This document shows, in pieces, positions 6 to 33,063 of a stretch of DNA of 36,037 bases. The notes beneath the pieces are model-generated. The model searched no databases, was not told the origin of the DNA, and saw nothing but the letters and a program-made list of their open reading frames with translations. The position numbers were made by a program, and so were the translations under genes. Within the stretch, counting starts at the first letter, position 1, and every line of letters starts with the position of its first letter. The stretch lies in the NCBI GenBank assembly GCA_041572275.1, contig JBFFSQ010000004.1, positions 1 to 36,037 of the forward strand, in the 5' to 3' direction. This DNA is from Gammaproteobacteria bacterium (lineage in GTDB: Bacteria; Pseudomonadota; Gammaproteobacteria; SZUA-229).

Positions 6-1229
6 TTAATCCAGCACATGGGATACCAGTCCATCAGCCAGCTTCGGTTCAAACCAGGTAGACTTGGGTGGCATCACTTCATTGGCATCTGCCACTGCCA
101 TCAATGCCTCCATACTGGTCGGGTATAAGGAAAATGCTACGGCCATCTCACCGGAATCCACACGTTTTTCCAGCCCGGCAAGACCTCGTATCCCACCAAC
201 AAAATCGATGCGTGGATCGGTACGCGGGTCAGCAACTCCGAGCACAGGTTCCAGTAAATTATCAGCCAGCAATGCCACATCCAGACTGGCAACTGGGTCA
301 TCTGGAATCAAGCTGGCCTGGATATTTAATCGATACCATTCACCCGCAAGGTACATACCAAACTCAGTCGCTTTTGAGGGTTTCACTGGTGCATTTTCTT
401 TACTGCACTCAAAACGCTCTGCAATTTTATTTAAAAACTCATCCTGACTCAGGCCATTCAGGTCAGTCACCACACGATTGTAATCGAATATTTTCATCTG
501 ATTATGAGGAAAAATCACTGATAGAAAATAATGACTCATCTGCTCATCGGAGCCTCCAATGGCTTTAGCCACCCGTGATGCCGAGGCCGAACGATGATGA
601 CCATCGGCAATATAAATCGCCGGCATGGCATCGAAACCGGCGCTTAGTTTCTCGATCGTCATTGTATCATCCACCACCCAGAAGGTATGTCCAATACCAT
701 CATCCGCCTGCAAGTCATAGACAGGTGCTGACTCAGTCACCTGTTCCAGTATTGCATCAATTTCAGCATCTGATTTATAGGCCAGCAACACAGGGCCGGT
801 CTGCGCATTTAAGGCTTCGATCTGACGGACGCGATCATCTTCCTTCGCTGGACGGGTAAATTCATGTTTACGAATACGATTGCTATCATAATCCTTCACT
901 GACGCGGCGGCCACCAGGCCTGTTTGCACATGGTCACCCATGGTGAGCCGATACACATAATAACGCGGCTCAGGATCACGCATTAATACACCATTGGTAA
1001 CCAGTGTATCCAGGTTCTCAGCCGCCTTGGCATACACAGCTGGATCATAGGGATCGGTACCTTCTGGCAAATCAATTTCTGCTTTTGAAATATGCAGAAA
1101 ACTCATGGGTTTGCCGGCGGCACGCTCTCGTGCCTCAGCGCTATTAAGCACATCATAAGGTGGCGCAACCACATCTTCAGCATGTTCGGGGACAGGACGT
1201 AATCCAGCAAATGGGCGTATCAATGGCAT
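6..1229 (-). CDS. DUF1015 family protein (ParB/Srx-like nucleotide-binding motif)
   Basis: 407-aa ORF. N-terminal RPFAGLRP, APPYDV, RKHEFT, YIADGHHR and C-terminal MPPKSTWFEPKL motifs are typical of DUF1015. Confidence 0.85.
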   Translation of the reverse strand: MPLIRPFAGLRPVPEHAEDVVAPPYDVLNSAEARERAAGKPMSFLHISKAEIDLPEGTDPYDPAVYAKAAENLDTLVTNGVLMRDPEPRYYVYRLTMGDHVQTGLVAAASVKDYDSNRIRKHEFTRPAKEDDRVRQIEALNAQTGPVLLAYKSDAEIDAILEQVTESAPVYDLQADDGIGHTFWVVDDTMTIEKLSAGFDAMPAIYIADGHHRSASASRVAKAIGGSDEQMSHYFLSVIFPHNQMKIFDYNRVVTDLNGLSQDEFLNKIAERFECSKENAPVKPSKATEFGMYLAGEWYRLNIQASLIPDDPVASLDVALLADNLLEPVLGVADPRTDPRIDFVGGIRGLAGLEKRVDSGEMAVAFSLYPTSMEALMAVADANEVMPPKSTWFEPKLADGLVSHVLD

Positions 1230-11277: not shown

Positions 11278-11805
11278 CTATTGATTGAAACGTCCAATGC
11301 TATCCAATATTTCCTGTTCGGCTTCCTCTACACCCACCCAGCTCTCAACCTTAACCCATTTACCGGACTCCAGTGCCTTGTACTGCTCAAAGAAGTGGGT
11401 GATCTGCCCCAGAATACCGTCATGCAGATCAAAGGGTGATTTCACATCATCATACAGCTTGGTCAGTTGATGAACCGGAACCGCCAGAATCTTATGATCC
11501 TCACCGGCCTCATCAATCATCTTCAACATTCCCACTGGTCGACAACGGATCACCGAACCACTGATCAGAGGAACCGGGGTCACTACTAACACATCGACCG
11601 GATCACCATCCTCTGACAAGGTGTGAGGCATAAACCCATAATTACAGGGATAAAACATCGCCGTACCCATGAAACGATCCACGGTCAGCGTACCACTGTC
11701 TTTATCCACTTCATATTTTACCGGCGAACCATGGGAGGGTATTTCAATTACGACATTAATATCATGAGGAACGTCTTCTCCCAGGGGGAGGTTATCAAGG
11801 TTCAT
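11278..11805 (-). CDS. ppa: Soluble inorganic pyrophosphatase (family I)
   Basis: VKYEVDK, YPCNYGF, DGDPVDV signature, [10 protein letters not shown]. Confidence 0.97.
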
Positions 11806-11981
11806 AGCATTCTTCTTTCTTTAAAAATCCACACAATTACATGAAGTCAGTCTGGGCAGACCCAGGAAACACGCTGATTATATCAACAACTGTGCAGAGA
11901 ATACTCGACATTATCTGAGCATTGATTACAATCCAGAAAACCTACGAACTGGTTCTGGACATTTTAGGGGAAACTTCAGCC

Positions 11982-13340
11982 ATGAGAATCGTTTTATTAG
12001 GAGCACCCGGCTCCGGCAAAGGCACACAGGCAAAACTGCTTGTTGAAAAATATAATGTACCTCAGATCTCCACTGGCGATCTGCTTCGCGCAGCGGTGAC
12101 AGCACAAACCCCACTGGGCAGACAGGCCAAAGCGATTATGGATGCCGGTCAGCTGGTACCCAATGAAATTGTCCTTGGCATGATCCGCGAACGCCTGAAC
12201 AATCCGGATGCCCGAAATGGCTTCATCCTTGATGGTTTCCCTCGCAACGTTGAGCAGGCTGAAGAACTCAATACTCTGCTCAGCAACATGGACAAACCCA
12301 TCGAAAAAGCGATTCTCATTGATGTCGACTTTGATGTCCTCATGCAGCGTCTCACCGGTCGACTATCCTGTGAGAAGTGTGGCGCCGTCTACAACACCTT
12401 CACCAACCCACCGGCTCTGGAAGATGAATGTGATGAATGTGGCAGTGATCTACACCACCGCTCTGATGACAATGAAGAAACCATCGGTAAACGTCTACGT
12501 GTCTATGAACAGCAAACACAGCCTGTGGCTGATTATTACAAGGCACAGAACAAGCTTGCCAGTATTGATGGCATGGGCGACATCAACGATATTTTCAAGG
12601 CAATAAAAGTCGCACTGCAAACACCTTCATCTGCCTTGCCCGTCAAAAAGACACCGGCACCCCTGCCGATTGTAAAGCAGGTTGAAGCTGAAGTTGCCGC
12701 TGCAGAAACCAAACCTGCACCCGAAAAGCCTGCCGAAACGAAAGCGGAAGCCCCAAAACCGGCCCCAGCTAAGACTGAAGCTGCACCGACACCCACTGTC
12801 GCCAAAACAGTAGAAAAACCAGCACCGACAAAGGCCCCGGCCAGTAAGCCTGCTGCCGCGAAAAAACCCGACGTGGAGAAAAAGGCCGCGGCTCAAAAAC
12901 CCACTACAGCTAAAAAAGCAGCAGTGAAAAAGGCCACTACTAAAAAGCCTGCCGCCGCCAAAAAAGCGGCCGTGAAAAAAGAAGCTGCTAAGAAACCTGC
13001 TGCTGCCAAAAAAGCAGCCGTGAAAAAAACTGCTGCTAAAAAGCCTGTCTCCGCCAAAAAAGCGGCCGTAAAAAAAGCCGTCGCCAAGAAACCAGCTGTT
13101 GCAAAAAAAGCAGCTGCGAAAAAAGCCAGGACAACAGCTAGCACCAACCCCATGCAGCAACTACGTGACCAGCTCAAAGCCATGCAGGACGAGCTCAAAC
13201 AAGTCAATGCTGAACTGAAACAGGCTGAAAGCCGCAATCAGGCACTGTTATCGGTGGAGAATCAGAAAGATGGCTTACGTAGCCGCTTCTCCAGTCAATG
13301 GGAAAAAGATCTGATGAAAATGCTGAAAAAGATTAAATAA
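11982..13340 (+). CDS. adk: Adenylate kinase (long Zn-lid type) with C-terminal Pro/Ala/Lys-rich histone-H1-like tail and coiled coil
   Basis: GAPGSGKGT P-loop, ISTGDLLR, GFILDGFPR, lid CEKC...CDEC and RSDD. Start set at ATG 11982, downstream of the SD-like AGGGGA. About 240 extra residues follow the core. Confidence 0.95.
   Translation: MRIVLLGAPGSGKGTQAKLLVEKYNVPQISTGDLLRAAVTAQTPLGRQAKAIMDAGQLVPNEIVLGMIRERLNNPDARNGFILDGFPRNVEQAEELNTLLSNMDKPIEKAILIDVDFDVLMQRLTGRLSCEKCGAVYNTFTNPPALEDECDECGSDLHHRSDDNEETIGKRLRVYEQQTQPVADYYKAQNKLASIDGMGDINDIFKAIKVALQTPSSALPVKKTPAPLPIVKQVEAEVAAAETKPAPEKPAETKAEAPKPAPAKTEAAPTPTVAKTVEKPAPTKAPASKPAAAKKPDVEKKAAAQKPTTAKKAAVKKATTKKPAAAKKAAVKKEAAKKPAAAKKAAVKKTAAKKPVSAKKAAVKKAVAKKPAVAKKAAAKKARTTASTNPMQQLRDQLKAMQDELKQVNAELKQAESRNQALLSVENQKDGLRSRFSSQWEKDLMKMLKKIK
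12894..13133 (+). repeat. Five tandem 48-bp coding repeats (16-aa unit, consensus KKPAAAKKAAVKKxxx) inside the adk tail
   Basis: Units start at 12894, 12942, 12990, 13038 and 13086: QKPTTAKKAAVKKATT / KKPAAAKKAAVKKEAA / KKPAAAKKAAVKKTAA / KKPVSAKKAAVKKAVA / KKPAVAKKAAAKKART. Confidence 0.9.
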
Positions 13341-13374
13341 AATTTTAGAGGCCACTCTAAAAACCAGCATGCAC

Positions 13375-13404
13375 AAAAAAGGCCGGGACATCCCGGCCTT
13401 TTTT
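13375..13404. terminator. Bidirectional intrinsic terminator between convergent adk and thioredoxin
   Basis: AAAAAA-GGCCGGGA-CA-TCCCGGCC-TTTTTT perfect inverted repeat, giving U-tracts on both strands. Confidence 0.9.
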
Positions 13405-13495
13405 GTTTCATTCGCTGTATCCAGTGAGGATTAGCGAGTGCACGAACCCACAAAAGCCCAATGAAAATGACTAATGGCGTTTATACACAAACACC

Positions 13496-13882
13496 TTAGG
13501 AACTGGCGTTAGCCTGTTCAGCAGCCTGTGCCTCAGCAATTTCTGCACGGACTTTGTCCATATCCAGCGTTTTGATCTGACCTATCATGTCATCTAGTTG
13601 TGGCCCTGGAACCATGCCGGCTTCAGCAAAGATAATAATCTGTTCACGGAAGACCATCAGGGTGGGGATTGAACGAATCTGAAAATGGGCAGCTATTGCC
13701 TGCTCTTCTTCAGTGTTGATCTTGCCAAAGACAATATCAGGGTGTTTTTCTGATACTTCTTCGTAAATTGGACCAAATGACTTACAGGGACCGCACCAGG
13801 GCGCCCAAAAATCAATCAGAACGATATCGTTCTCATTTACTGTGGACTCAAGATTTTGCTCGTTCAGTTCGATAGTTGCCAC
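13496..13882 (-). CDS. Thioredoxin
   Basis: DFWAPWCGPCK active site and IRSIPT cis-Pro loop. Start reassigned to GTG at 13882, preceded by AGGAG. Confidence 0.92.
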   Translation of the reverse strand: MATIELNEQNLESTVNENDIVLIDFWAPWCGPCKSFGPIYEEVSEKHPDIVFGKINTEEEQAIAAHFQIRSIPTLMVFREQIIIFAEAGMVPGPQLDDMIGQIKTLDMDKVRAEIAEAQAAEQANASS

Positions 13883-13976
13883 ATTCTTCTCCTGTTGTGA
13901 GTTTTCAGGAATACTCCTGTCAAACTCGGAGTATACAGTATTACTAAATACTAATATATGGCCGTAAGCCGGGTTT

Positions 13977-15767
13977 TCAACCCTGGCGCACTCCATAGAG
14001 TTGACGATACAGACCGTCTCGATTCACCAGCTCGTTATGACTGCCTTCGTCAATGACTTTTCCGCCATCGAACACATAGACCCGATCTGCCTGTTTCACA
14101 GCACTCAGTCGATGAGCGATAATTAGAGTCGTTCGGTTACGTAAGAAGCCCTGCAATGCCTGGTGGAGCTGATATTCAGTCTCGGCATCCAGGGCAGATG
14201 TCGCCTCATCAAGTATCACTATTTTAGGATCCATCAACACCATTCGCGCGACCGCCAGGCGCTGACGTTGGCCACCAGACAAACGCACACCGTTGCGCCC
14301 CACGATGGTATCCAGACCTTCAGGCATATCCAAGATTACCGACTTAAGCTGGGCTATTTCCAGCGCCTGCCACAGGGACGCCTCATCGATATCACGTCCC
14401 AAACAAAGATTATTCCGTACGCTGTCATTGAATAGCGCCGGATGCTGCAATACCGTCGCCACATTTTCGCGCACCACATCCAGTCCAATCTCTGTCACCG
14501 GCACCTCATCAAAATACAGTTGCCCAGATGCAGGTGGATAAAGCCCGAGAATTACCTGTACCAAGGTCGATTTACCACCACCACTGGCACCTACCAGGGC
14601 AATTTTTTCACCGGCCTGAATGGTTAGCGAAACATCATCCAGCACGGGATCACCGGGAGTATAGGCAAAGTGGATATGCTCAAGACGCATACCCACGGTG
14701 TGTTGATGTTCAAAGGGATTCTGTCTATTGGGGTACTGGGGTTCCTGTTTCAGGTGCAGCAAGCGATTAATCCGACCTAATGCGGCATTGGCCGAAAAAT
14801 AGCTATACTGGATCGACAAAATTTCCTGGACAGGCGTCATCATAAACCACAGATAGGCATAGACGGCAAACATCTGGCCGATACTGAGACTGGAAAATAC
14901 CACCATCAACATACTCACGGCCCGAAACATCTCAAAGCCCATCAGAAATACAAAGAATGACAGTTTATTGGCCGCATCACTTTTCCAGCTAAACGCAGCA
15001 GAATGGTGCTTGATACCCCGGGCCCGGTCGATCACCCGTAACAGATAATGACGTTCCCGGTTACTGGCACGGATTTCCTGTATACCGTCCAGAGTTTCAC
15101 TCAAGGATTGCTGAAACAGCTCAAACGCCGAATTTTCCTTTTTTTTCAGCTGTTTAACTTTCTTACCTAGCACCGTAGTGAAATAAATCACCAGCGGGTT
15201 CATCACCAGAATAAACAGGCCCAGTGGCCAGTGGATCAATAACAGTATCACCGCCACACCAGTGATCGTCAGCACAGCTACGATAAATTTACTCAAGGCC
15301 GTACCGATAAATATATCGATGGCTTCAACATCAGTAACCATATGTGATGCCACCGTGCCACTACCCAGGGTTTCATACTCCGCCATGGAGACTCGTTGTA
15401 GCCGCTCCAGCAGGCCTCTGCGAATGCGATAGGTAATTTCCTTGGCCACCTGGGTAAAGGTACGTGTCTGCCAGACAGCCAGGGTGATGGCCAGCGCCCG
15501 TAACAACATGGTTACCAGCATCATGACAAGAATATACAGTACGGCACTATGCCAGCTGTCAGGAAACACCGCATTCATCGTTGCCACCAGCGTCCCTGGC
15601 TGCTGTAGCAACACCTCATCAACTAACAAAGGCATCAGCAGGGGAACTGGCGCACTCACCAGTGCCGCAAAAATCGCAATGATATTGGCATACCACAGGG
15701 TTCGCTTATGCTGCAGTGCAATCTGTCGAATATAAGACCAGCTATATTGGAGTGTATGTTCAGACAT
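13977..15767 (-). CDS. ABC exporter, fused permease/ATP-binding protein
   Basis: N-terminal TM domain, Walker A GASGGGKST, signature LSGGQ, Walker B ILDEATSALD, switch IAHRLS. Confidence 0.93.
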   Translation of the reverse strand: MSEHTLQYSWSYIRQIALQHKRTLWYANIIAIFAALVSAPVPLLMPLLVDEVLLQQPGTLVATMNAVFPDSWHSAVLYILVMMLVTMLLRALAITLAVWQTRTFTQVAKEITYRIRRGLLERLQRVSMAEYETLGSGTVASHMVTDVEAIDIFIGTALSKFIVAVLTITGVAVILLLIHWPLGLFILVMNPLVIYFTTVLGKKVKQLKKKENSAFELFQQSLSETLDGIQEIRASNRERHYLLRVIDRARGIKHHSAAFSWKSDAANKLSFFVFLMGFEMFRAVSMLMVVFSSLSIGQMFAVYAYLWFMMTPVQEILSIQYSYFSANAALGRINRLLHLKQEPQYPNRQNPFEHQHTVGMRLEHIHFAYTPGDPVLDDVSLTIQAGEKIALVGASGGGKSTLVQVILGLYPPASGQLYFDEVPVTEIGLDVVRENVATVLQHPALFNDSVRNNLCLGRDIDEASLWQALEIAQLKSVILDMPEGLDTIVGRNGVRLSGGQRQRLAVARMVLMDPKIVILDEATSALDAETEYQLHQALQGFLRNRTTLIIAHRLSAVKQADRVYVFDGGKVIDEGSHNELVNRDGLYRQLYGVRQG

Positions 15768-15942
15768 AATGGTATTCGGGCTGGCTCCTGCAGTTTGCTG
15801 TCAGACGACTAACATTAATCATACACTGTCAAAGCAAAATTTCGGTAGCTGTGGCAACTGCCAACTCATCTATACTTTAATCAATAACATTTTGGGCAAA
15901 CAATTTTCCCCAACCAGTCAGGACAAACAGCCGGGTATCATC

Positions 15943-17346
15943 ATGTCATCTATTCTGGTAATCGATCAGGGCACCCATGCCAGTCGGGCAATGCTGTTTT
16001 CTGGTGATGGCCAGGTACTGGCCCAGGCTGAACAGACCATTGCCCTGCAGCGGCGTAGCCCAGAAGAGATCGAACAGGACCCTGCTGAAATACTGGCCTC
16101 AGTCCAGCAGGTTATACAACGACTGCCCCAAAACTTACTCAGACAGGCACAACATTGCTGCCTGACCAGCCAGCGCTCGACTGTACTGGCCTGGCATGCA
16201 CAGACCGGTAAGGCCCTGTCCCCAGCCCTCAGTTGGCAGGACCGACGCAGTCTGCACGACCTGCAACAATTTCATCCCCTGAACAGCCGCATCAGGGCGA
16301 TTACCGGGCTACCCCTGTCTCCGCATTATGGGGCTGGCAAGTTCCGCTGGTTACTGCAACACTGCCCGCCGGTTCAACAGGCCCTTGAGGATGGACAGTT
16401 ACATCTGGGTATGCTGGTCAGCTACCTGCTACATCACCTGCTCGAGCAACCTCGGCACCTGATTGACCACAGCAATGCCCACCGCAGCCTGCTGTTTGAT
16501 CTGCATCGTCTGGACTGGTCAGCGGAACTCTGTCAGCTATTTGCAATTCCCCAACATTGCCTGCCTGAATGCCTGCCCATGCAATATGATTACGGGCAAC
16601 TGAAAGACTATGGCATTCCAATCACCACGGTCTGTGGCGACCAGAGTGCGGCCCTGTTCGCTCAGGGCCCAATATCATCCGGGGTCGCTCATATCAATAT
16701 TGGTACAGGTGCATTTATTCTCGCACCTTGCGAAGCCCCCATCACCGAGACTGATCTGCTATGCGGGATTGCCCTCAGTGATCAACACCAGCACGGTTAT
16801 CTGCTGGAAGGCACCGTCAATGGCGCCGGTGCCGCATTGAGCTGGGCCCAGCAGCAGTTCCCGGTCGAACAACTCTTCCAGCACTTGCCAGGCTGGCTCG
16901 CCAATACCGACACGGTTCCCTTGTTCGTCAATACCATCGGTGGTCTTGGCTCACCCTGGTGGAAAGATGGTGGACCGGCCCATTTCACGGATGATTGCCC
17001 GTTATCGACACCACAACGCTATGTCGCCATCGTGGAAAGCGTAGTCTTTTTACTGCAGCACAACCTTGAACAGATGCAACAGCAGCTCGACATTCAGCAC
17101 ATCCAGGTCGGTGGTGGCCTGTCAAAACTTGATGGCCTGTGTCAGAAACTAGCCGATCTCAGCGCACTACCGGTTCAGCGCCCACGGCAAACCGAGGCCA
17201 CGGCACGAGGTGCCGCCTGGCTGGCAGCTGGTCGTCCGCAACACTGGTTCTCTCAAGCCATGCCCACAACATTTACGCCACACCAGCAGCCCGGTCTGCA
17301 ACAACGTTACCGGAACTTTATCGACGTCATTCGCGATTTACCATAG
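15943..17346 (+). CDS. FGGY-family carbohydrate kinase (divergent glycerol-kinase-like)
   Basis: IDQGTHASR, EQDP, WQDRR, GDQSAA, GTG and GLGSPWW motifs. Start reassigned to ATG 15943 (MSSILVIDQG). Confidence 0.85.
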   Translation: MSSILVIDQGTHASRAMLFSGDGQVLAQAEQTIALQRRSPEEIEQDPAEILASVQQVIQRLPQNLLRQAQHCCLTSQRSTVLAWHAQTGKALSPALSWQDRRSLHDLQQFHPLNSRIRAITGLPLSPHYGAGKFRWLLQHCPPVQQALEDGQLHLGMLVSYLLHHLLEQPRHLIDHSNAHRSLLFDLHRLDWSAELCQLFAIPQHCLPECLPMQYDYGQLKDYGIPITTVCGDQSAALFAQGPISSGVAHINIGTGAFILAPCEAPITETDLLCGIALSDQHQHGYLLEGTVNGAGAALSWAQQQFPVEQLFQHLPGWLANTDTVPLFVNTIGGLGSPWWKDGGPAHFTDDCPLSTPQRYVAIVESVVFLLQHNLEQMQQQLDIQHIQVGGGLSKLDGLCQKLADLSALPVQRPRQTEATARGAAWLAAGRPQHWFSQAMPTTFTPHQQPGLQQRYRNFIDVIRDLP

Positions 17347-20605: not shown

Positions 20606-20953
20606 ATGACAAACAAGACTCCCGAAATAAAAGACTGCCCCATGTATCGTCTTCTCAGAGAGGGCAATATCAAAGACTTCAATGCCAAGAAAGCGGCAGG
20701 AGCCAGCTGTGACCTGACCGGTGCCGACTTTCGAAGCGTTAGCCTGGTCGGGATCGATGCCGAGGGACTGGATTTCAGCAATTGCTACTTCCGCATGTGC
20801 AATTTACGCGGCGTTGACCTAAGAAATGCCAATTTACGTGGTGCCAGCATTCACGGTGCCCAGATTTCCGGCGCTTATTTCCCTGACGAACTGAGTGCCC
20901 AGGAAATAGAGCTTTCCCTGGAACACGGCACCCGCATGCGCTATTCCAGCTGA
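20606..20953 (+). CDS. Small pentapeptide-repeat protein
   Basis: Run of A/C-D/N-L/F-x-x units (CDLTG ADFRS VSLVG IDAEG LDFSN CYFRM CNLRG VDLRN ANLRG ASIHG AQISG). Confidence 0.9.
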   Translation: MTNKTPEIKDCPMYRLLREGNIKDFNAKKAAGASCDLTGADFRSVSLVGIDAEGLDFSNCYFRMCNLRGVDLRNANLRGASIHGAQISGAYFPDELSAQEIELSLEHGTRMRYSS

Positions 20954-25238: not shown

Positions 25239-26093
25239 ATGGAATCCCTTTCTGATCAGCAAACACTGGATGAGGTCGAGAAAACCATTTTGCTGGTAGA
25301 TGATGAACCCAATATCATCAAAGCACTTAAACGGCTGTTGCGTCGAGACGGCTATACCATACTCACAGCCACTGATGGACGCACTGGGCTAGACATGCTC
25401 GCGCATAACAAGGTTGGCGTTATCCTGTCGGACCAGCGCATGCCTGAAATGTCCGGTGTCGAATTTCTCAGCCAGGTCAAAGAACTGTACCCGGATACGG
25501 TGCGAATGGTCCTGAGTGGTTACACCGACCTGAATACAGTCACTGATGCAATCAACCAGGGGGCGATTTACAAGTTCCTAACCAAACCCTGGGAAGATGG
25601 GCTGCTAAGAGCAAACATCAAAGATGCCTTCCAGCATTTCAGACTGGTCAGAGAAAACAGACGCCTGCATGCAGAACTTAAGAAACTCAATCAGCTCCTG
25701 GAAAATCGTCTTGATGAACAGAATCGTCTATCCAAGATTGAGTTGCACATGCTCCAGCTAAACCAGGCTGTTCTCGATAACCAGCCGGTAGCAGTTCTTG
25801 GTATCGGGGATGATCAAATGATTGCTGTCGCCAATAATCGAGCCCATGAACTTCTAAATGTTCAAGCCGGCAGCCTGCTCACGGCCTTTGCCAACCAGGT
25901 CTTGCCACAGGAGATCCAGGATGCCTACACCAGGATTGACGATGACACTGAGGAAGTCTGCACAGTCATTCGTTTGAACAAAATTGATTACCAGATCATA
26001 TGCCGACGATTAACAGCTCCTTCAGGCCCACAGGGCTTAGTCATCACACTATTCCCCCGCTACGCAAGCCAAATCAGGCAACTGGACACATAA
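25239..26093 (+). CDS. Response regulator: receiver + coiled coil + degenerate PAS-like domain
   Basis: LLVDDE, SDQRMP (phospho-Asp), LSGYT and TKPW. C-terminal VLDNQPVAVLGIGDDQMIAVANNRA is PAS-like. No HTH. Confidence 0.85.
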   Translation: MESLSDQQTLDEVEKTILLVDDEPNIIKALKRLLRRDGYTILTATDGRTGLDMLAHNKVGVILSDQRMPEMSGVEFLSQVKELYPDTVRMVLSGYTDLNTVTDAINQGAIYKFLTKPWEDGLLRANIKDAFQHFRLVRENRRLHAELKKLNQLLENRLDEQNRLSKIELHMLQLNQAVLDNQPVAVLGIGDDQMIAVANNRAHELLNVQAGSLLTAFANQVLPQEIQDAYTRIDDDTEEVCTVIRLNKIDYQIICRRLTAPSGPQGLVITLFPRYASQIRQLDT

Positions 26094-26094
26094 C

Positions 26095-26412
26095 ATGAAA
26101 CATAAAATAACAATTGAGTTGCCATCGGCCATTGAAGGCATGCAACTGGCCACTGATGCCATCGACGATAAAGGCGTTTGCCTCATAGTTGCCGGTGCCA
26201 CTCTGACAGAAGCATCAATACAAGGTCTAGCCAAGCGCAACATTAAGAGCATTGAAATTTATCAACAGGAACAGCTCACACCCAAGCAGGCACAACAACG
26301 TCGTGCAGAAATCAAAACCCAACTTGACTATTGCTTCAGCAAAACACAAAGCAAGCCATTAATGAGCGATTTAAAACAAATTTTTTACAATTACAGAACT
26401 CTGGACCTTTAA
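26095..26412 (+). CDS. Small hypothetical protein carrying a GMxLAxD...G..L...G..LT...I..L module
   Basis: 105-aa ORF packed 1 nt from both neighbours. The motif EGMQLATDAIDDKGVCLIVAGATLTEASIQGL resembles accessory modules of HD-GYP/HDOD proteins. Confidence 0.75.
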   Translation: MKHKITIELPSAIEGMQLATDAIDDKGVCLIVAGATLTEASIQGLAKRNIKSIEIYQQEQLTPKQAQQRRAEIKTQLDYCFSKTQSKPLMSDLKQIFYNYRTLDL

Positions 26413-26413
26413 C

Positions 26414-27250
26414 ATGCTCAGCCAACAGGAACTCGAACAGGGCATCAAAGACATCCCCCCTCTATCACCTGCCATAGTTGATATTCTCAACATGTTGAAT
26501 GCAGATACTGATGTGGATTTCAGGCTACTGGAGAAAAAACTCCTTCAAGATCCAGGACTGACTGGGCGCGTGCTGGCACTGGCAAACTCACCTTTCTTCG
26601 GTATGGCGGGAGAAGTGAGCCGCGTTAAAGATGCCTGCCTGATTTTAGGGATTAATGCCATCCGAAACCTGGTCATCTCGACTGCCATGATGAAACAATT
26701 TTCATCAAGCTCGGCCAGCAACCTGGATATACAAGGACTCTGGCGTCATTCTATTGCCAGCGCCTCTGCGGCTATAAGCCTGTCACGACACACCAAAATT
26801 GACCAGGACCAGGCATTTACCGCCGCCCTGCTCCATGACATCGGTAAAATGGTGCTCGATATACACTTTCCAGAACATTACCTGCAGGTCATTAAATATC
26901 AACAGGAACAGCAATGCCTCATTCGTGAAGCTGAAGAACACATACTGGGCTGTGACCATAGCGAAGTCGGTGCTCTGGTGGCCCAGAAATGGAAATTACC
27001 CAACGAAATCATTAACACCATCAGAGACCATCATGACCGCGCCGATCCAGAAACAACCGTATTATCAGACCTTGTTAATTTATCCGACATTGTCAGCCGT
27101 GGCCTCGCCCTCGGTAATCCAGGCGATGGTTTTATACCTGAGTTAAACGTGAATATACCGCTCAGACTAAATATTAGCTTAGAGGACATTGCAGACAGCC
27201 TGGCCGAAATTGAAGCACTGTATGACAGCTTCGTCAGCCTGATTGAATAA
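26414..27250 (+). CDS. HDOD domain protein
   Basis: IPPLS, QDPGLTGRVLALANSPFFG, LWRHS, AALLHDIGK, DHSEVG..VAQKWKLP and HH motifs. Confidence 0.92.
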   Translation: MLSQQELEQGIKDIPPLSPAIVDILNMLNADTDVDFRLLEKKLLQDPGLTGRVLALANSPFFGMAGEVSRVKDACLILGINAIRNLVISTAMMKQFSSSSASNLDIQGLWRHSIASASAAISLSRHTKIDQDQAFTAALLHDIGKMVLDIHFPEHYLQVIKYQQEQQCLIREAEEHILGCDHSEVGALVAQKWKLPNEIINTIRDHHDRADPETTVLSDLVNLSDIVSRGLALGNPGDGFIPELNVNIPLRLNISLEDIADSLAEIEALYDSFVSLIE

Positions 27251-27357
27251 GAGAAAATATTGACCTATACATTAATTAATGATGTGTGCATAAACCCGAT
27301 CAGTTAGGCCGTAATCATGATGATATCTTCCACACTCCTAATCAGGCGAACTCGAAC

Positions 27358-28923
27358 ATGAACACCCCGGATATCACACAATGCATGAGTAATTTAAAAG
27401 CGGCAATTAACAGCATGCATCACGCCGGCACTTCAGCGCCAGAGTCAATCGCTGAACAGATTGATGCTGAACTAGATAGTTTAACCAGGGCTGTAGATGA
27501 TGCGTGTAAACAATCTAAACTGGAATCCTCGTCACTAAGCCGAGCCAATGTCAGCATGGTCTTACTTATCGATGCCATGGCTGAATGGCAAACCGCCGAC
27601 ATCGAACGCCAGAAGTCAACTGATAGCCAAAACCTTGAGCTGTTTAAACCAGCACTGGTCGATTTAATGAATGCCACAGATGCACAATTCTCAGTGCTTA
27701 AATTCTATTCCGACAATCACGAAACAAACGGTTTCTATGGCGTTGACACCAGCACAGGCACAACCAAGACTATTACTGACGAATCGGAATTAAGAGGCCT
27801 TGTGCAGTTACATCTGAACTCAACGGTAGTCGAGAAAATTAACGATCTAAGCCACAATGCTCGCACCTGTGATCGGATCGATAGTCTTCAAGGTATTCAT
27901 AACCTGCTCAGCCTGCCACTCATATCAGGCCCCACCATCAAAGGGAAAATATTCATTGCCAATAAAAAAAATGGCCAGGTATTTGATGAGAATGATGTGA
28001 TTATTTGCCGACTATTTAAAACGGCCATATCCCATATCATGGAACGTGACGACCTGCTCATTCAGATCAACCAGGAAAAGGAAGAGCACAAATTATTAAC
28101 CGAAAAAATACACAAGGCTCAAAACCAACTCCTGCAATCTGAAAAAATGGCTTCTATTGGCTCCTTGGCGGCTGGTGTCGCCCATGAAATAAATAACCCG
28201 GTGGGATACATCAACTCGAATATCAGCAGCCTTAAAAATTATATTGCCGATGTATTTCAGATCCTGAATAAATACAATGAACTCGAACCCTCACTAAGCA
28301 ACCAACAAATAAAAGACATAAAAGAACTAAAAGACCAATTAGATATTGATTTCATAAAAGACGACATTATCGAATTGGTCAGCGAATCAGAAGAAGGCGT
28401 AAAGCGAGTCAAGCAAATTGTCCAGGACCTCAAAGACTTCTCTCATGTCGATGAAGCTGAATGGCAATGGACAAATATACATAACGGTATAAACAGCACA
28501 TTAAATATTGCGCATAACGAAACCAAATACAAAGCTGAGGTTATCAAGGAATTTGGCGACATACCCGACATAGAATGCATTATTTCACAACTTAATCAGG
28601 TATTCATGAACCTGATCGTTAATGCCGCCCAGGCAATAGATGACAAAGGCACCATTACCATAAAAACAGAAGCCATCGACACAAACAGGATTCGAATTAC
28701 AATCTCAGACACTGGCAAAGGAATATCAGAAGACAATCTAAATCGAGTATTCGATCCATTCTACACCACCAAACCAGTAGGTAAGGGCACCGGCCTTGGC
28801 CTTTCACTATCTTTTAGCATCATAGAGAAACATCATGGCACAATTGACTTAACCAGCCAGGTAGGCAAAGGAACCATATTCACCATCGAACTTCCCATCC
28901 AGCAACCCGAACCTGCTGCCTGA
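27358..28923 (+). CDS. Cytoplasmic GAF sensor histidine kinase
   Basis: GAF-like segment, H-box SEKMASIG.LAAGVAHEINNP, N-box QVFMNLIVNA, DTGKG, FDPFYTTK and GTGLGL. No TM segment. Start uncertain (GTG 27286 or ATG 27358). Confidence 0.9.
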   Translation: MNTPDITQCMSNLKAAINSMHHAGTSAPESIAEQIDAELDSLTRAVDDACKQSKLESSSLSRANVSMVLLIDAMAEWQTADIERQKSTDSQNLELFKPALVDLMNATDAQFSVLKFYSDNHETNGFYGVDTSTGTTKTITDESELRGLVQLHLNSTVVEKINDLSHNARTCDRIDSLQGIHNLLSLPLISGPTIKGKIFIANKKNGQVFDENDVIICRLFKTAISHIMERDDLLIQINQEKEEHKLLTEKIHKAQNQLLQSEKMASIGSLAAGVAHEINNPVGYINSNISSLKNYIADVFQILNKYNELEPSLSNQQIKDIKELKDQLDIDFIKDDIIELVSESEEGVKRVKQIVQDLKDFSHVDEAEWQWTNIHNGINSTLNIAHNETKYKAEVIKEFGDIPDIECIISQLNQVFMNLIVNAAQAIDDKGTITIKTEAIDTNRIRITISDTGKGISEDNLNRVFDPFYTTKPVGKGTGLGLSLSFSIIEKHHGTIDLTSQVGKGTIFTIELPIQQPEPAA

Positions 28924-28948
28924 CACGCACTTAAACACATGAACCATC

Positions 28949-30265
28949 ATGACCACAAACAACCCAGCATCTACCATTGAAAAAGCCAGCTTGCTTTTCG
29001 TCGACGATGAAAAAAATATATTATCGTCATTAAAACGACTGTTCCGCAGCGAAGGTTACACTATACACCTGGCCAACAGCGGAGCCGAAGGATTGGACAT
29101 CCTTACAACACATAAAATCAATCTGGTCATATCAGACATGCGCATGCCGGAGATGAATGGTGCCGAATTTCTGGAAAAAGTCGCTACCACATGGCCTGCC
29201 GTAACTCGAATACTACTAACCGGATATTCTGAAGTATCCTCAACTATTGACGCCGTAAACAAAGGCAACATCTACAAATACATTAGCAAGCCATGGGAAG
29301 ACAATGACATTAAATTAACTGTCAAGCACGCACTCGAAGCCCAGGCAATTGAAATAGAACGCGACAAGTTACTCGCGCTAACCCAACGTCAAAATGAAGA
29401 ACTTAAAGACTTCAATAGCAAACTAGAAGACATGGTCAAGACACGCACTGCAGAACTCGACCAGACCATGGCCATGCTGGAACGTGCTTATGAGACACTA
29501 AAGGATAGCTACTCGACCACTATACAAGTTTTCTCCAACCTCATTGAACTAAGAGAAGATAATCTTCAAAGCCATTCTAAACAGGTCGCCCAACAGGCCT
29601 ATGATCTGGCATTAACCGTGGGCATGACTGACGACACTGCAAAACAGATTTCTTTTGCCGGACTGTTACGAAATATTGGAAAAATCGGATTCGCAGACAG
29701 CATAAACAGGAAATCTGTTGATGACATGACTCCTACCGAAGCAATTCAGTACAAAAAACACCCGATCCTAGGCTCAAGTATTCTTATGGCCTTAGAACCA
29801 CTGCAAACTGCCGCCTCACTTATCCATGGCTACTGTGAACAATATGATGGCCATGGCTACCCCGATCAACTAGCTGGTGAGAACATCCCCCTTGGCTGCC
29901 GAATCCTCAACGTGGTTAGCGATTTTCATGCATTACAGACGGGCACTCTCATACCAAAAAAACTAGATACCGAGCAAGCAAGAGATTATTTATTATCACA
30001 ACGCGGCAAACGCTACGACCCCAACATTGTCAATGCCTTTATCAATGAACTCATCAAAAATGAACAGCATGACAACATACAAAAGGAAACACTGATTTCT
30101 GCCCATCAGCTCAAAATCAACATGAAACTAGCAAGAGACCTTGTAACCAAAGATGGCATTCTATTGCTATCTGAAGGCCACTTGCTTGGTGAACATATGA
30201 TTAAACAGATAAATAAACTTGAAAAATCACTGGATGAAACACTACAAATTTATATTCACTCTTAA
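28949..30265 (+). CDS. Response regulator with degenerate HD-GYP domain
   Basis: Receiver motifs FVDDE, SDMRMP and SKPW. HD-GYP-like region with LLRNIGKIG in place of LLHDIGK, KKHP, and GYCEQYDGHGYP. Confidence 0.88.
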   Translation: MTTNNPASTIEKASLLFVDDEKNILSSLKRLFRSEGYTIHLANSGAEGLDILTTHKINLVISDMRMPEMNGAEFLEKVATTWPAVTRILLTGYSEVSSTIDAVNKGNIYKYISKPWEDNDIKLTVKHALEAQAIEIERDKLLALTQRQNEELKDFNSKLEDMVKTRTAELDQTMAMLERAYETLKDSYSTTIQVFSNLIELREDNLQSHSKQVAQQAYDLALTVGMTDDTAKQISFAGLLRNIGKIGFADSINRKSVDDMTPTEAIQYKKHPILGSSILMALEPLQTAASLIHGYCEQYDGHGYPDQLAGENIPLGCRILNVVSDFHALQTGTLIPKKLDTEQARDYLLSQRGKRYDPNIVNAFINELIKNEQHDNIQKETLISAHQLKINMKLARDLVTKDGILLLSEGHLLGEHMIKQINKLEKSLDETLQIYIHS

Positions 30266-30279
30266 TATTGAGAACCACC

Positions 30280-30819
30280 ATGTACCAAATAATGTTAGTA
30301 GATGATGAAGAAAACATTCTTAAAGCATTAAAACGTGTGCTCGCCGTCAAAAAAGACTGGAACATAGAAGCTTTTACCTGCGCAGAAGAAGCACTTGCAC
30401 GTGCAACCAAAAAAACATTTGATCTCTATTTATCCGACTATCGAATGCCCAAAATCGATGGTATCAGCTTCCTCACTGCCACCAAAAGCATACATCCTAA
30501 CGCTATGAGAATTGTCCTTAGCGGCTATACAGATTATGACGCTCTCATGGGCGCTATTAATCAAGCCGAAATATTTAGATTCATTACCAAACCCTGGAAT
30601 GACGAGTACCTGATAAATGCAATAACTCAGGCACTGACCTATAAAGACACCTTAATTGAAAATCAGCGACTAGCTGACCAGGTCAGAGCCCAACAAGTTC
30701 AACTTAATAAACAAAAACAAATATTTGAAGACTATAAATCTAAACACCCTGACCTATTTAATGTTGAGTGGGCTGCCGATGGCTCAATAATTATTAACGA
30801 TGATACAGATACAGACTAA
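30280..30819 (+). CDS. Receiver-domain protein with C-terminal coiled coil
   Basis: LVDDE, SDYRMP, LSGYT and TKPW motifs. Short helical tail ending VEWAADGSIII. Start set at ATG 30280. Confidence 0.88.
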   Translation: MYQIMLVDDEENILKALKRVLAVKKDWNIEAFTCAEEALARATKKTFDLYLSDYRMPKIDGISFLTATKSIHPNAMRIVLSGYTDYDALMGAINQAEIFRFITKPWNDEYLINAITQALTYKDTLIENQRLADQVRAQQVQLNKQKQIFEDYKSKHPDLFNVEWAADGSIIINDDTDTD

Positions 30820-30898
30820 GCTGCCATGGTAGTTTCTACCTAAGTCAAAACAAATTCACAATAACTCTTATCACAAGTTTTTCTATGAGATCTTAATA

Positions 30899-32272
30899 TT
30901 GACAGTGAAAATCAACACCACATGGATCTATAACCTTTACCGACTCGGACAGAAGGCCGCTTCTGCTCATGCTAAAGAATCAGCAAGAGAAGATTTCCTA
31001 AGATATATCATTTCAGCCTTTAATGCTGACTCAGGATCATTAGCGCAATCATTGGCCGATGACAAAACTCTCATGATTGTTGCTGGCATTGACATCCCAA
31101 GACAGGCTATTGGTAGCACAATCAAATTCGGCTCAGCCGTTCTTGGCTGGGTTGCAGAAAACAAAAAACCCTTATTGATTAATGGCAAAATATCCAGTGA
31201 TAGCGAATTCAGTAAGCAATTCAAGAACAAACAAGCCAACAAGGAAAAATCATCCATGTGCTGGCCTTTGTTGATCGACAAACAAGTAGTAGGAGTCATC
31301 AGCATCAATAAAAACATGGACAATGGACAATTCACTCAAGATGATCTCAATCGCGGCAATAACTTAATGCACTTCGTCGCACTCGCTGTAGAAACGGCAC
31401 GATCCCATGATCAAACCGAACAATTACTTCAAGATCAAATCAAGCTAAATAAACGGCTTGAAGAGGCACAAAATCAGCTATTACAATCAGAAAAAATGGC
31501 CTCAATTGGTCAATTAGCTGCCGGCGTTGCTCATGAAATCAACAACCCTGTCGGCTACATAAACTCTAATCTTTCAACTCTTGCCAGCTATATCAACAGC
31601 ATATCCAAAATGCTACAGTTGTATGCTGACACTGCTGATCCTGTACTTAAACAAACACCTGAGCATTACAAAAAAATAAAAGATCACAAAAATGATATTG
31701 ACCTTGAATTCATTATGGAAGACCTGCAATCACTCATTGCAGAATCCATGGAAGGCGTTACCCGTGTTAAAAAAATTGTTCAGGACCTAAAGGACTTTTC
31801 CCACGTAGATGAATCAGAATTTAATTGGGCTGATATCCATGGTGGCATCGATAGCACGCTCAACATAGCCCATAATGAAATCAAATATAAAGCCAACGTT
31901 ATCAAAGAATATGGTGACATACCGGAAGTTGAGTGCATTGCATCTCAAATTAACCAGGTATTTATGAATATTCTGGTTAATGCTGCCCATGCTATTGAAG
32001 ACCAAGGAACCATTACCATAAAAACTGGCCGCGGTGATGACGACAATATCTGGATTATTATCCGTGATACTGGATCAGGCATACCCGAGAAGAATCTAAA
32101 GCGAATATTCGATCCTTTTTTTACATCTAAACCGGTTGGACACGGCACCGGCCTTGGGCTGTCCTTATCGTATAGCATTATCGAGAAACATAAAGGACGA
32201 ATAGAAGTTGACAGTACACTTGGGCAAGGTACTGAATTTACAATCTGGCTGCCTATTCAACAACCATCATAA
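30899..32272 (+). CDS. Cytoplasmic GAF sensor histidine kinase (paralog of 27358-28923)
   Basis: GAF segment (GSAVLGWVAENKKPLLI...SMCWPL...VGVISINK), H-box AHEINNP, and N, G1, F, G2 boxes. TTG start. Confidence 0.9.
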   Translation: MTVKINTTWIYNLYRLGQKAASAHAKESAREDFLRYIISAFNADSGSLAQSLADDKTLMIVAGIDIPRQAIGSTIKFGSAVLGWVAENKKPLLINGKISSDSEFSKQFKNKQANKEKSSMCWPLLIDKQVVGVISINKNMDNGQFTQDDLNRGNNLMHFVALAVETARSHDQTEQLLQDQIKLNKRLEEAQNQLLQSEKMASIGQLAAGVAHEINNPVGYINSNLSTLASYINSISKMLQLYADTADPVLKQTPEHYKKIKDHKNDIDLEFIMEDLQSLIAESMEGVTRVKKIVQDLKDFSHVDESEFNWADIHGGIDSTLNIAHNEIKYKANVIKEYGDIPEVECIASQINQVFMNILVNAAHAIEDQGTITIKTGRGDDDNIWIIIRDTGSGIPEKNLKRIFDPFFTSKPVGHGTGLGLSLSYSIIEKHKGRIEVDSTLGQGTEFTIWLPIQQPS

Positions 32273-32283
32273 ACCCATACATA

Positions 32284-33063
32284 TTAATCTCCGACATATG
32301 ATTCAACGTTATCCGGTTTTCGCTCTAACCAATTCAATTCATGTGGGTTAAAACCATGCTCAATGGTTAGTTTTACAATCTGGAAATAAGGTGAGACATC
32401 GAAATCCCGTGGCGTTATCAGGGTATGATGGCGAGGTAATAACGCTTCTTCATAACACTCCAGGCCTCCAGGCCCGGTTCCAGCATGCACTATTACATCA
32501 GGTAAAATCGGATACCCAACAGACTGGAAGGCCTCTGCAATCATGGACGAACAAATTGCCCGGGTCGGATCTCCACTACCCAGTGACAATAACTGGCGAC
32601 GCCAGCGATTAGGAACAGGAGGTGTTTGAATTAGATAACGGACCAAATCAATAATATTTTTCAGATCATACTGATGCCCCATACGTGACATGGCGTGAGC
32701 TAGCAGGCGCTCGATTTCCGCTTCTTGCAAACCTACGGGACGACAGATACGGGTACCCATGGCAGCATAATGACTCAACGGCATCAATCGTACGCCCTCA
32801 ACGACATCTGCCTCTATTAACCAGTGCCGATTTTCAGACTGGCCACTCAAGGCTCCAACATAGAGAGCAGCATGGGACCAATTGGACTGGGTGATAAATT
32901 TAATGGCCGCACTAATTCGACTGTTACCATCCACTAACAGCACATCACCCTTTTGAATAGTTGTGGACAACACCTCCAACCCACAACTAGAGGCTACCGA
33001 CTCCGGTAATCGCGGCCTCGATAAATAGCGTGCCAGTAATCGCCCAACAGGTTCGAGTATCAC
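32284..33063 (-). CDS. YiiX/YebB-like permuted papain (NlpC/P60) family protein
   Basis: GDVLLV, His motif WSHAALY placed before Cys motif AICSSMIA (permuted order), ITPRDFD. Confidence 0.8.
   Translation of the reverse strand: MILEPVGRLLARYLSRPRLPESVASSCGLEVLSTTIQKGDVLLVDGNSRISAAIKFITQSNWSHAALYVGALSGQSENRHWLIEADVVEGVRLMPLSHYAAMGTRICRPVGLQEAEIERLLAHAMSRMGHQYDLKNIIDLVRYLIQTPPVPNRWRRQLLSLGSGDPTRAICSSMIAEAFQSVGYPILPDVIVHAGTGPGGLECYEEALLPRHHTLITPRDFDVSPYFQIVKLTIEHGFNPHELNWLERKPDNVESYVGD

Follow-up and report, generated by a model that had tools for sequence, protein, structure and literature searches.

Adenylate kinase (Adk), which catalyzes the reaction AMP + ATP <-> 2 ADP, is usually regarded as a small, soluble, monomeric housekeeping enzyme. 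Histone H1-like tails have been described in proteins of Pseudomonas. In Pseudomonas aeruginosa, the KPAA tail of AlgP (AlgR3) binds DNA, and the protein is found on polyphosphate (polyP) granules, which it spaces (PMC9239181). In Pseudomonas putida, PhaF forms tetramers through a leucine zipper, its H1-like tail is thought to wrap DNA, and polyhydroxyalkanoate (PHA) granules are tethered to the nucleoid (PMC3574117). Here we describe a long Adk with a polycationic tail and a C-terminal helix. It is encoded on a 36,037-nucleotide (nt) stretch of DNA, termed the window, from a gammaproteobacterium of the lineage SZUA-229 (assembly GCA_041572275.1, contig JBFFSQ010000004.1, positions 1 to 36,037).

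The enzyme part of the long Adk is intact, and its tail module appears to be shared with a small H1-like protein encoded elsewhere in the same genome. Together with the analogy to AlgP and PhaF, these features suggest that the long Adk may be tethered to the nucleoid, where it could co-assemble with the stand-alone protein and recycle adenylates locally beside a pyrophosphatase. We give this reading a probability of about one half.

Architecture of the long adenylate kinase

The long adk gene is a single intact open reading frame (ORF) with no internal stops, and it encodes a four-part protein. The ORF listing extends the frame upstream to a TTG at 11922. As judged by alignment, the true start is the ATG at 11982, because all 35 aligned homologues open with M(R/K)(I/L)VLLGAPG and because the motif AGGGGA lies 10 nt upstream of this codon.

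The first part is an Adk core of 213 amino acids (aa), which matches Pfam ADK (PF00406) with 193.1 bits (cut-off 26.8), TIGR01351 with 261.3 bits (cut-off 168), and NCBIfam NF001380 with 303.1 bits (cut-off 251) across aa 1–213. The initial annotation of the window had proposed an intact core of this size fused to a tail, and the single frame and the NF001380 match bear this out. The P-loop GAPGSGKGT at aa 7–15 fits the GxPGxGKGT pattern. Residues R36, R88, R123, R127, R160, R171, and D162/D163 are unchanged across the 35 aligned long forms; we take these arginines and aspartates to have the catalytic role of those in Escherichia coli Adk. The long Adk is predicted to be catalytically competent. 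Its lid matches ADK_lid with 50.1 bits (cut-off 26.6) at aa 127–162 and contains a CxxC...CxxC pattern, whose four cysteines are invariant among the same long forms. By these features the long form is assigned to the Zn-lid-type (Cys4) Adk subtype.

The core is followed by a spacer made largely of Ala (23.7%), Pro (21.1%), Lys (15.8%), Thr (11.8%), and Glu (10.5%), in which AlphaFold2 places a low-confidence short helix at aa 230–241. The repeat region behind the spacer consists of 36.5% Ala and 34.4% Lys and has a net charge of +31, which agrees with the H1- and AlgP-like composition noted initially. Five KKPAAAKKAAVKK repeats had been described in this region. Tandem repeats are present, but there are four clean 16-aa units, KKPAAAKKAAVKKxAA, starting at aa 321, 337, 353, and 369, and these are preceded by degenerate copies. 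According to Tandem Repeats Finder, a 48-nt unit recurs 5.8 times with 71% matches at 12846–13127. The Pfam model HC2 (PF07382) reaches 42.0 bits against a cut-off of 40, in two stretches within the low-complexity aa 240–448. The Burkholderia-type histone H1-like model NF038053 reaches 27.1 bits, which is under its 80-bit cut-off and does not place the protein in that family.

The protein ends in a helix. AlphaFold2, run on the 35-sequence alignment, predicts a single helix at aa 390–451 with a predicted local distance difference test score (pLDDT) of 88–94, compared with ~90 for the core and mostly <50 for aa 221–387; the predicted template modeling score (pTM) of this model is 0.48, so that the relative placement of the domains carries no meaning. 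The hydrophobic residues of the helix follow 3/4 heptad spacing at 391–425 and an i+4 stripe at 432–451. The heptad-patterned helix of ~60 aa proposed initially thus corresponds to a predicted helix of 62 residues with heptad spacing in its first part. A two-copy complex prediction of the C-terminal helix (alignment A2) gave a score of 0.05 (mark 0.42), which counts neither for nor against self-association.

The fusion of core and tail is not an assembly artefact, because contigs from three studies bridge the junction without insertions or deletions (indels) and because more than 100 clusters of metagenomic proteins share the architecture. Logan contigs of X4, X5, and X6 span the core-tail junction at 12620/12621 with 0–1 differences and no indels, so that a stop or frameshift after the core, the artefact envisaged in the initial annotation, is not seen. 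X4 comes from the study that also supplied the probable source samples, but it is not a flagged sample; in it, a 3293-nt contig crosses 11800–13166 with a single difference and no gaps, and another contig crosses 13149–13423. X5 has identical contigs at 12495–12811, 12783–12971, and 13040–13299, and X6 has an identical contig at 12542–12947. Of 7999 candidates scored in the homologue search (248–791 aa), 3251 proteins reached E ≤ 0.001. Among these are at least 120 clusters of 332–468 aa, most of which cover 100% of the query. Long-Adk homologues come from many independent assemblies, including those of hydrothermal vent samples and of a siboglinid worm endosymbiont. In the metatranscriptomic library X19, one 182-nt contig is identical to 12351–12532; it leaves the tail uncovered and may reflect DNA carry-over.

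The terminal helix and its stand-alone relative

The initial annotation had suggested searching the C-terminal helix alone for signs of a conserved domain, and the helix behaves as one. With the last 67 aa as the sole query, 69 of 97 family genomes were matched at E ≤ 0.01 (the family as sampled is the whole order as sampled), and many of them, including the own genome, have a second locus. In the own genome, this locus (G000:C1:49984-50160, minus strand; L033:3949-4425, minus strand) encodes P0122, a stand-alone basic protein of 159 aa, in which N-terminal Lys/Ala repeats are followed by the helix and then by a KKRKKRK end. The P0122 gene is flanked by a moeA-like gene on one side and by an ORF of 386 aa on the other. 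Relatives contribute 20 more stand-alone members of 154–272 aa, and the source annotation lists stand-alone members as hypothetical proteins only.

Several comparisons indicate that the end helix of the long Adk and the helix of the stand-alone protein are homologous. In BLASTP, the Adk helix matches P0122 at E 8e-10 and is 33% identical to it over 57 aa. When 20 Adk helices were compared with 21 stand-alone tails in hhalign, the probability was 95.7% (E 9.4e-9, 54 columns). Both groups align jointly without gaps over ~58 columns. In the numbering of the 64-aa row of the C-terminal domain, E23, R30, K41, F48, and K62 are conserved at ≥90%, and a Trp at F48+4 is present in most rows. The helix of the long Adk follows this E..R..K..F..W..K pattern behind a polycationic region, as do the members of the helix family (A4), and the own-genome A4 match scores 93.9 bits.

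The helix profile does not behave as a generic coiled-coil detector, since its matches among 1.84 billion representative proteins are few. A profile of 41 helices matched 52 of these proteins at E ≤ 1e-3, including 11 at E ≤ 1e-10. The 52 matches are long Adks (445, 458, and 468 aa), basic proteins of 120–250 aa, fragments, and three multi-stretch coiled-coil proteins, which are 574–783 aa long and match weakly (E ~1e-4). P0122 as a protein-search query returned only 4 matches, as the search was swamped by low-complexity words; an IF3_N domain that a domain scan reported in one of them was set aside as chance or a fused fragment. Among Pfam and NCBIfam models, none scored above cut-off for the helix or for 11 stand-alone members, and only sub-threshold coiled-coil families appeared. 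A profile search of the PDB for a solved relative of the A4 helix gave a best E of 0.019, with matches to designed coiled coils, the Rad50 coil, and similar structures. In the ESM Atlas, the best score for the helix was 0.78, from a cluster of 149-aa hypothetical proteins, and this is under the level that counts.

The ratio of nonsynonymous to synonymous substitution rates (dN/dS) over the last 58 codons is 0.06–0.34 in those 6 of 11 pairs whose dS was unsaturated, and that of the core is 0.02–0.06 in the same pairs. These values indicate purifying selection on the helix. The helix family, whose members always have the helix behind Lys/Ala repeats or AT-hook-like repeats of the DNA-binding type, may represent a new class of nucleoid-associated protein in Gammaproteobacteria of the sulfur cycle and of sediments. 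Several family genomes also contain weaker helix-profile matches (E 1e-6 to 1e-8), a third class that lies in small frames of 120–176 aa, for example at G108:C27:20563-20751, G004:C8:45149-45304, and G015:C21:211390-211545. These frames could encode another paralogue of P0122 and its relatives.

The A4 helix profile matches 92 of the 97 family genomes and all 44 high-quality ones, counts that include the stand-alone form. In at least 42 of the 97, the helix closes a frame of ≥330 aa. Across 401 genomes sampled evenly from ~240 families of the class, the helix occurs in 17 genomes of 12 other families, always in frames of 125–212 aa, and this holds without the unpublished genome G391. No fusion of Adk and helix was found outside the window's family in this class sample. 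Because small frames carry the helix in 12 other families, the small protein is considered older and scattered.

Paralogues, tail variation, and genomic neighborhood

The long Adk is, on present genome comparisons, an extra, lineage-specific paralogue, and family genomes carry up to three Adks. The initial annotation had recommended looking for a second, plain adk in the genome, and one is present. It lies on a 2.4-kb contig of the own assembly (G000:C197; L002:290-925, minus strand), which comprises 306 contigs with 100% marker completeness and 3.55% contamination. The encoded protein has 212 aa and a Cys4 lid, and it is 47% identical to the long core. It is also 97% identical to the copy of the relative G007, and contig C197 is therefore part of the own lineage rather than contamination. 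This plain adk is located directly downstream of pgi. It is far more conserved than the long form.

In a search of 40 relatives with PF00406, most genomes of other families had one adk, whereas most of the 24 from the own family had two or three. A long frame of 327–484 aa is present in 22 of these 24; the exceptions are G008, which is 57% complete, and G005, in which a 246-aa frame is possibly cut. Three lid types occur: an E. coli-like type without cysteines, the plain Cys4 type of contig C197, and the long Cys4 type with the signature LHHRSDDNE. No E. coli-like adk turned up in the own assembly, and G020 and the near-complete G004, which has 10 contigs, likewise gave none. In a quick IQ-TREE analysis of 68 Adk cores (L024 and L170 were dropped because no start motif was found in them, and L027 is not an Adk locus), 28 long forms make up one clade, with a Shimodaira-Hasegawa-like approximate likelihood-ratio test (SH-aLRT) support of 86, and 14 plain Cys4 forms make up another (SH-aLRT 100). 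The E. coli-like Adks fall together with those of other gammaproteobacterial families that have a single Adk (SH-aLRT 98).

The extensions found in the family are always strongly basic, with 31–86 Lys and Arg residues, though their sequence differs among genera. In genus g15, the tail of ~160 aa contains just the first half of the helix, and in G011 the helix is followed by a further basic end. A search for related loci had its best matches in gammaproteobacterial metagenome-assembled genomes and otherwise matched ordinary Adks of unrelated phyla through patterns of the core.

The features of the locus are collected in the table. The long adk is surrounded by chromosomal housekeeping genes (lipAB, dacA, rlpA, mltB, rodA, mrdA, ppa, trx, an ABC exporter, glp genes, and thiDE). 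The order ppa <-> long adk <- trx is conserved among 30 loci, each only ~3.2 kb long, with ppa kept in 21 and trx in 27 of them.

Features of the long adk locus (positions in the window)
Feature	Position	Strand	Details and source
Long adenylate kinase coding sequence	11982..13340	+	452 aa + stop; ORF listing, homologue alignment
Adk core, aa 1-213	11982..12620	+	P-loop GAPGSGKGT, conserved Arg36/88/123/127/160/171; profile matches, alignment
Lid with four cysteines C130, C133, C150, C153	12369..12440	+	Invariant in 35 aligned long forms
Ala/Pro/Lys/Thr/Glu spacer, aa 214-289	12621..12848	+	Predicted mostly disordered; AlphaFold2, composition
Polycationic Ala-Lys repeat region, aa 290-385	12849..13136	+	Net +31; 48-nt (16-aa) tandem units; Pfam HC2 42 bits vs 40
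Conserved C-terminal helical domain, aa 386-452	13137..13337	+	Homologous to helix of stand-alone basic protein P0122, by alignment
Shine-Dalgarno-like AGGGGA	11966..11971	+	10 nt before ATG; read from sequence
Sigma-70-like promoter candidate TCGACA-16-TACAAT	11905..11932	+	ppa/adk divergent intergenic region; 10/12 matches, consensus match only
GC-rich hairpin, A-run before, T-run after	13373..13406		-26.1 kcal/mol, z -6.4; 3' of adk stop
Inorganic pyrophosphatase ppa	11278..11805	-	Divergent neighbor, synteny kept
Thioredoxin-family gene	13496..13996	-	Convergent neighbor, synteny kept

The hairpin downstream of the adk stop is probably a bidirectional terminator common to the long adk and the convergent trx. 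Eleven minus-strand terminator-like matches at 12519–13142 were rejected as a scan artefact, in which T-runs lie opposite the AAA lysine codons of the tail. The thioredoxin-family protein has 166 aa with an N-terminal extension of ~40 aa; it scores 101.3 with a general thioredoxin model (cut-off 96.8) and 103.5 with TrxC, below the cut-off of 125.

Elsewhere in the window, positions 25239–32269 hold duplicated two-component genes, including two T2SS_HK-type histidine kinases and an HDIG protein. Three receiver proteins from this segment match the model for NosR-family response-regulator cyclic di-GMP phosphodiesterases, one of them over its full length (533 bits). The GC content drops to 0.38–0.44 between 27 and 32 kb, compared with ~0.50 elsewhere in the window. 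At 15769–17343 (plus strand), an FGGY-family kinase, which scores 272 bits against a glycerol kinase cut-off of 590, adjoins a glycerophosphodiester phosphodiesterase gene and glpD; we class it as a divergent kinase of glycerol or a sugar. The ORFs at 9–1229 (minus strand, 407 aa), 32287–33063 (minus strand, 259 aa), and 20606–20950 (plus strand, 115 aa) gave no NCBIfam matches at E ≤ 1e-10.

Possible roles of the tail and comparison with known systems

In the reading that we favor, the Cys4-lid core is joined by a flexible spacer of ~75 aa to a module taken from, or shared with, the small H1-like protein. The cationic Ala-Lys region would bind a polyanion, most likely chromosomal DNA, and the terminal helix would self-associate or co-assemble with the stand-alone protein. 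Some of the Adk activity in the cell would thereby be held on the nucleoid, where it could recycle AMP and ADP from DNA and RNA transactions beside the divergently encoded pyrophosphatase. Nucleoid DNA is ranked first as the ligand because the tails of AlgP and PhaF bind DNA and because the logic of head, helix, and tail matches; polyP is ranked second, and RNA or ribosomes third. DNA is also favored over polyP because distant stand-alone members carry AT-hook-like repeats. In P0136, P0146, and P0153, three to five copies of (R/P)GRPPK replace the Lys/Ala repeats before the same helix. The AT-hook is a DNA minor-groove binder, and (R/P)GRPPK has its core. A PHA tether is unlikely, because PhaC_N was not found in the own genome, in a search that did not extend to class III synthases.

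It is doubtful whether the long Adk is, in a more far-reaching version, a resident enzyme of bacterial chromatin, whose helix co-assembles with the stand-alone H1-like paralogue while its Ala-Lys repeats bind DNA. If this were true, there would be a nucleoid-bound, possibly condensate-like layer that buffers adenylates, and the helix would define a new gammaproteobacterial nucleoid-associated family able to recruit cargo enzymes.

Several points weigh against a nucleoid tether built on this module. The composition of the tail alone cannot tell DNA from polyP or RNA, and polyP is available, as the own genome has one PPK1 gene and two single-domain PPK2 genes. The Pfam AT_hook model reaches 13–16 bits on stand-alone members, under its cut-off of 17.4, and the (R/P)GRPPK copies are a resemblance rather than a family call. 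The homology of the helices rests on a helical segment of 54–58 columns, and scores over such a segment can be inflated by its composition. Nor is the helix indispensable, since genus G021 has a 215-aa tail with 86 Lys and Arg residues in which no helix is recognizable. Finally, the tree of Adk cores is midpoint-rooted only, and it was flagged for long branches that come together between its E. coli-like clade and its plain Cys4 clade.

The tail may instead bind polyP granules, where Adk beside a polyphosphate kinase (PPK) would turn AMP and polyP into ATP as a local polyP:AMP phosphotransferase system. AlgP, with its KPAA tail of like composition, localizes to polyP granules (PMC9239181); in E. 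coli, polyP:AMP phosphotransferase activity results when PPK1 overproduction is combined with Adk (PMC3163519); and PAP and Adk regenerate ATP from polyP and AMP, according to a title cited in PMC8776046. The PPK1 and PPK2 genes of the own genome fit such a system, but the window annotation places no ppk gene near the long adk, and the motifs of the distant tail-module relatives are of the DNA type, so that we consider this explanation unlikely. The same AT-hook-like relatives, which point to DNA, argue against an association with RNA or ribosomes, in which the tail would bind rRNA or mRNA and Adk would recycle AMP where aminoacylation and translation use ATP. In favor of such an association, Lys/Ala-rich extensions are found on ribosomal proteins (PMC548281), and a tailed Adk of the PRK13808 type, described below, is encoded directly after secY, at the end of a ribosomal-protein operon. 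However, adk beside secY is an ordinary arrangement in many bacteria, and this adjacency says little because the position is so common. The long adk of the window, moreover, lies outside a ribosomal context. An association with RNA or ribosomes is quite improbable.

It is also conceivable that the long Adk is primarily a nucleoid protein tuned by energy charge, in which H1-like compaction is combined with an Adk core that serves as an adenylate sensor and whose open and closed states alter DNA engagement by the tail or helix. The tail module copies a presumably architectural stand-alone protein, and the other plain Adks of the same genomes could cover housekeeping catalysis. On the other hand, the catalytic residues are invariant and the dN/dS of the core is the lowest (0.02–0.11), as for a working enzyme; the disordered spacer of ~75 aa makes allosteric coupling between core and tail unlikely, and AlphaFold2 does not dock the helix on the core, though with a pTM of only 0.48. 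A sensor of this kind is very unlikely. Least credible is an origin of the tail as a neutral low-complexity expansion, a solubility tail, or an annotation or assembly artefact. Repeat DNA with a 48-nt unit can expand by slippage, and tail length and sequence vary widely between genera. Against this, the tail is found in 22 of the 24 sampled family genomes, the helix is under purifying selection and present in all 44 high-quality genomes (stand-alone form included), and the junction DNA is matched in three studies without indels.

A whole bacterial family keeps an extra Adk joined to a histone-like module, and another lineage has added a basic tail independently. The latter is seen in NF010381 (PRK13808, 335 positions), which scores above cut-off in 4 of 301 genomes sampled from the phylum, all of one other family. 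One of its members, at L182:1501-2379 (plus strand; G773:C108), has 292 aa, a short lid without the four cysteines, and a K/A/R-rich tail of ~95 aa. The window protein scores 205.7 bits with NF010381, against a cut-off of 426, and aligns over aa 1–128 only, which places it outside this family. Basic Adk tails are thus recurrent, and the PRK13808 type arose independently. This recurrence suggests that adenylate equilibration on a polyanionic scaffold, whether nucleoid, polyP, or RNA, may be a recurring advantage. No published study of an Adk with an H1-like tail was found in the literature searched, whose coverage excludes subscription journals and supplements. As far as the searches reach, the helix family and the set-up with three paralogues are undescribed, while tailed Adks as such are already in databases.

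The likeness to AlgP and PhaF suggested in the initial annotation holds for composition, but not for family membership: no phasin, AlgP N-terminal, or related family was matched in Pfam or NCBIfam by the whole protein or by the helix, and the module matches the stand-alone basic family instead. Like the long Adk, AlgP combines disordered Lys/Ala/Pro-rich H1-like repeats with an alpha-helical domain; however, its helix is N-terminal, its units are 4-aa KPAA repeats, and it has no enzyme domain, whereas the long Adk has a C-terminal helix and 16-aa units. PhaF, with a head, an oligomerizing helix, and a cationic tail, follows a comparable three-part logic. Its head is a PHA-binding amphipathic helix, in the place of which the window protein has an enzyme, and its coiled coil and basic tail stand in the opposite order to those of the long Adk. 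The chlamydial protein Hc2/HctB (PF07382) has a similar Lys/Ala-rich repeat composition, but the match is probably compositional, is spread over aa 240–448, and gives no sign of common descent. Hc2 is not known to carry an enzyme or a terminal helix domain. The stand-alone proteins of the P0122 type carry the same helix domain behind a basic region, but they are 120–270 aa long, lack an enzyme part, and have the extra short KKRKKRK end. The PRK13808-type Adk, which is annotated plainly as adenylate kinase, likewise has a basic C-terminal tail on an Adk. Its core, however, has a short lid, and neither a spacer nor a terminal helix is present, while the long Adk of the window combines a Cys4 lid with a spacer and a helix.

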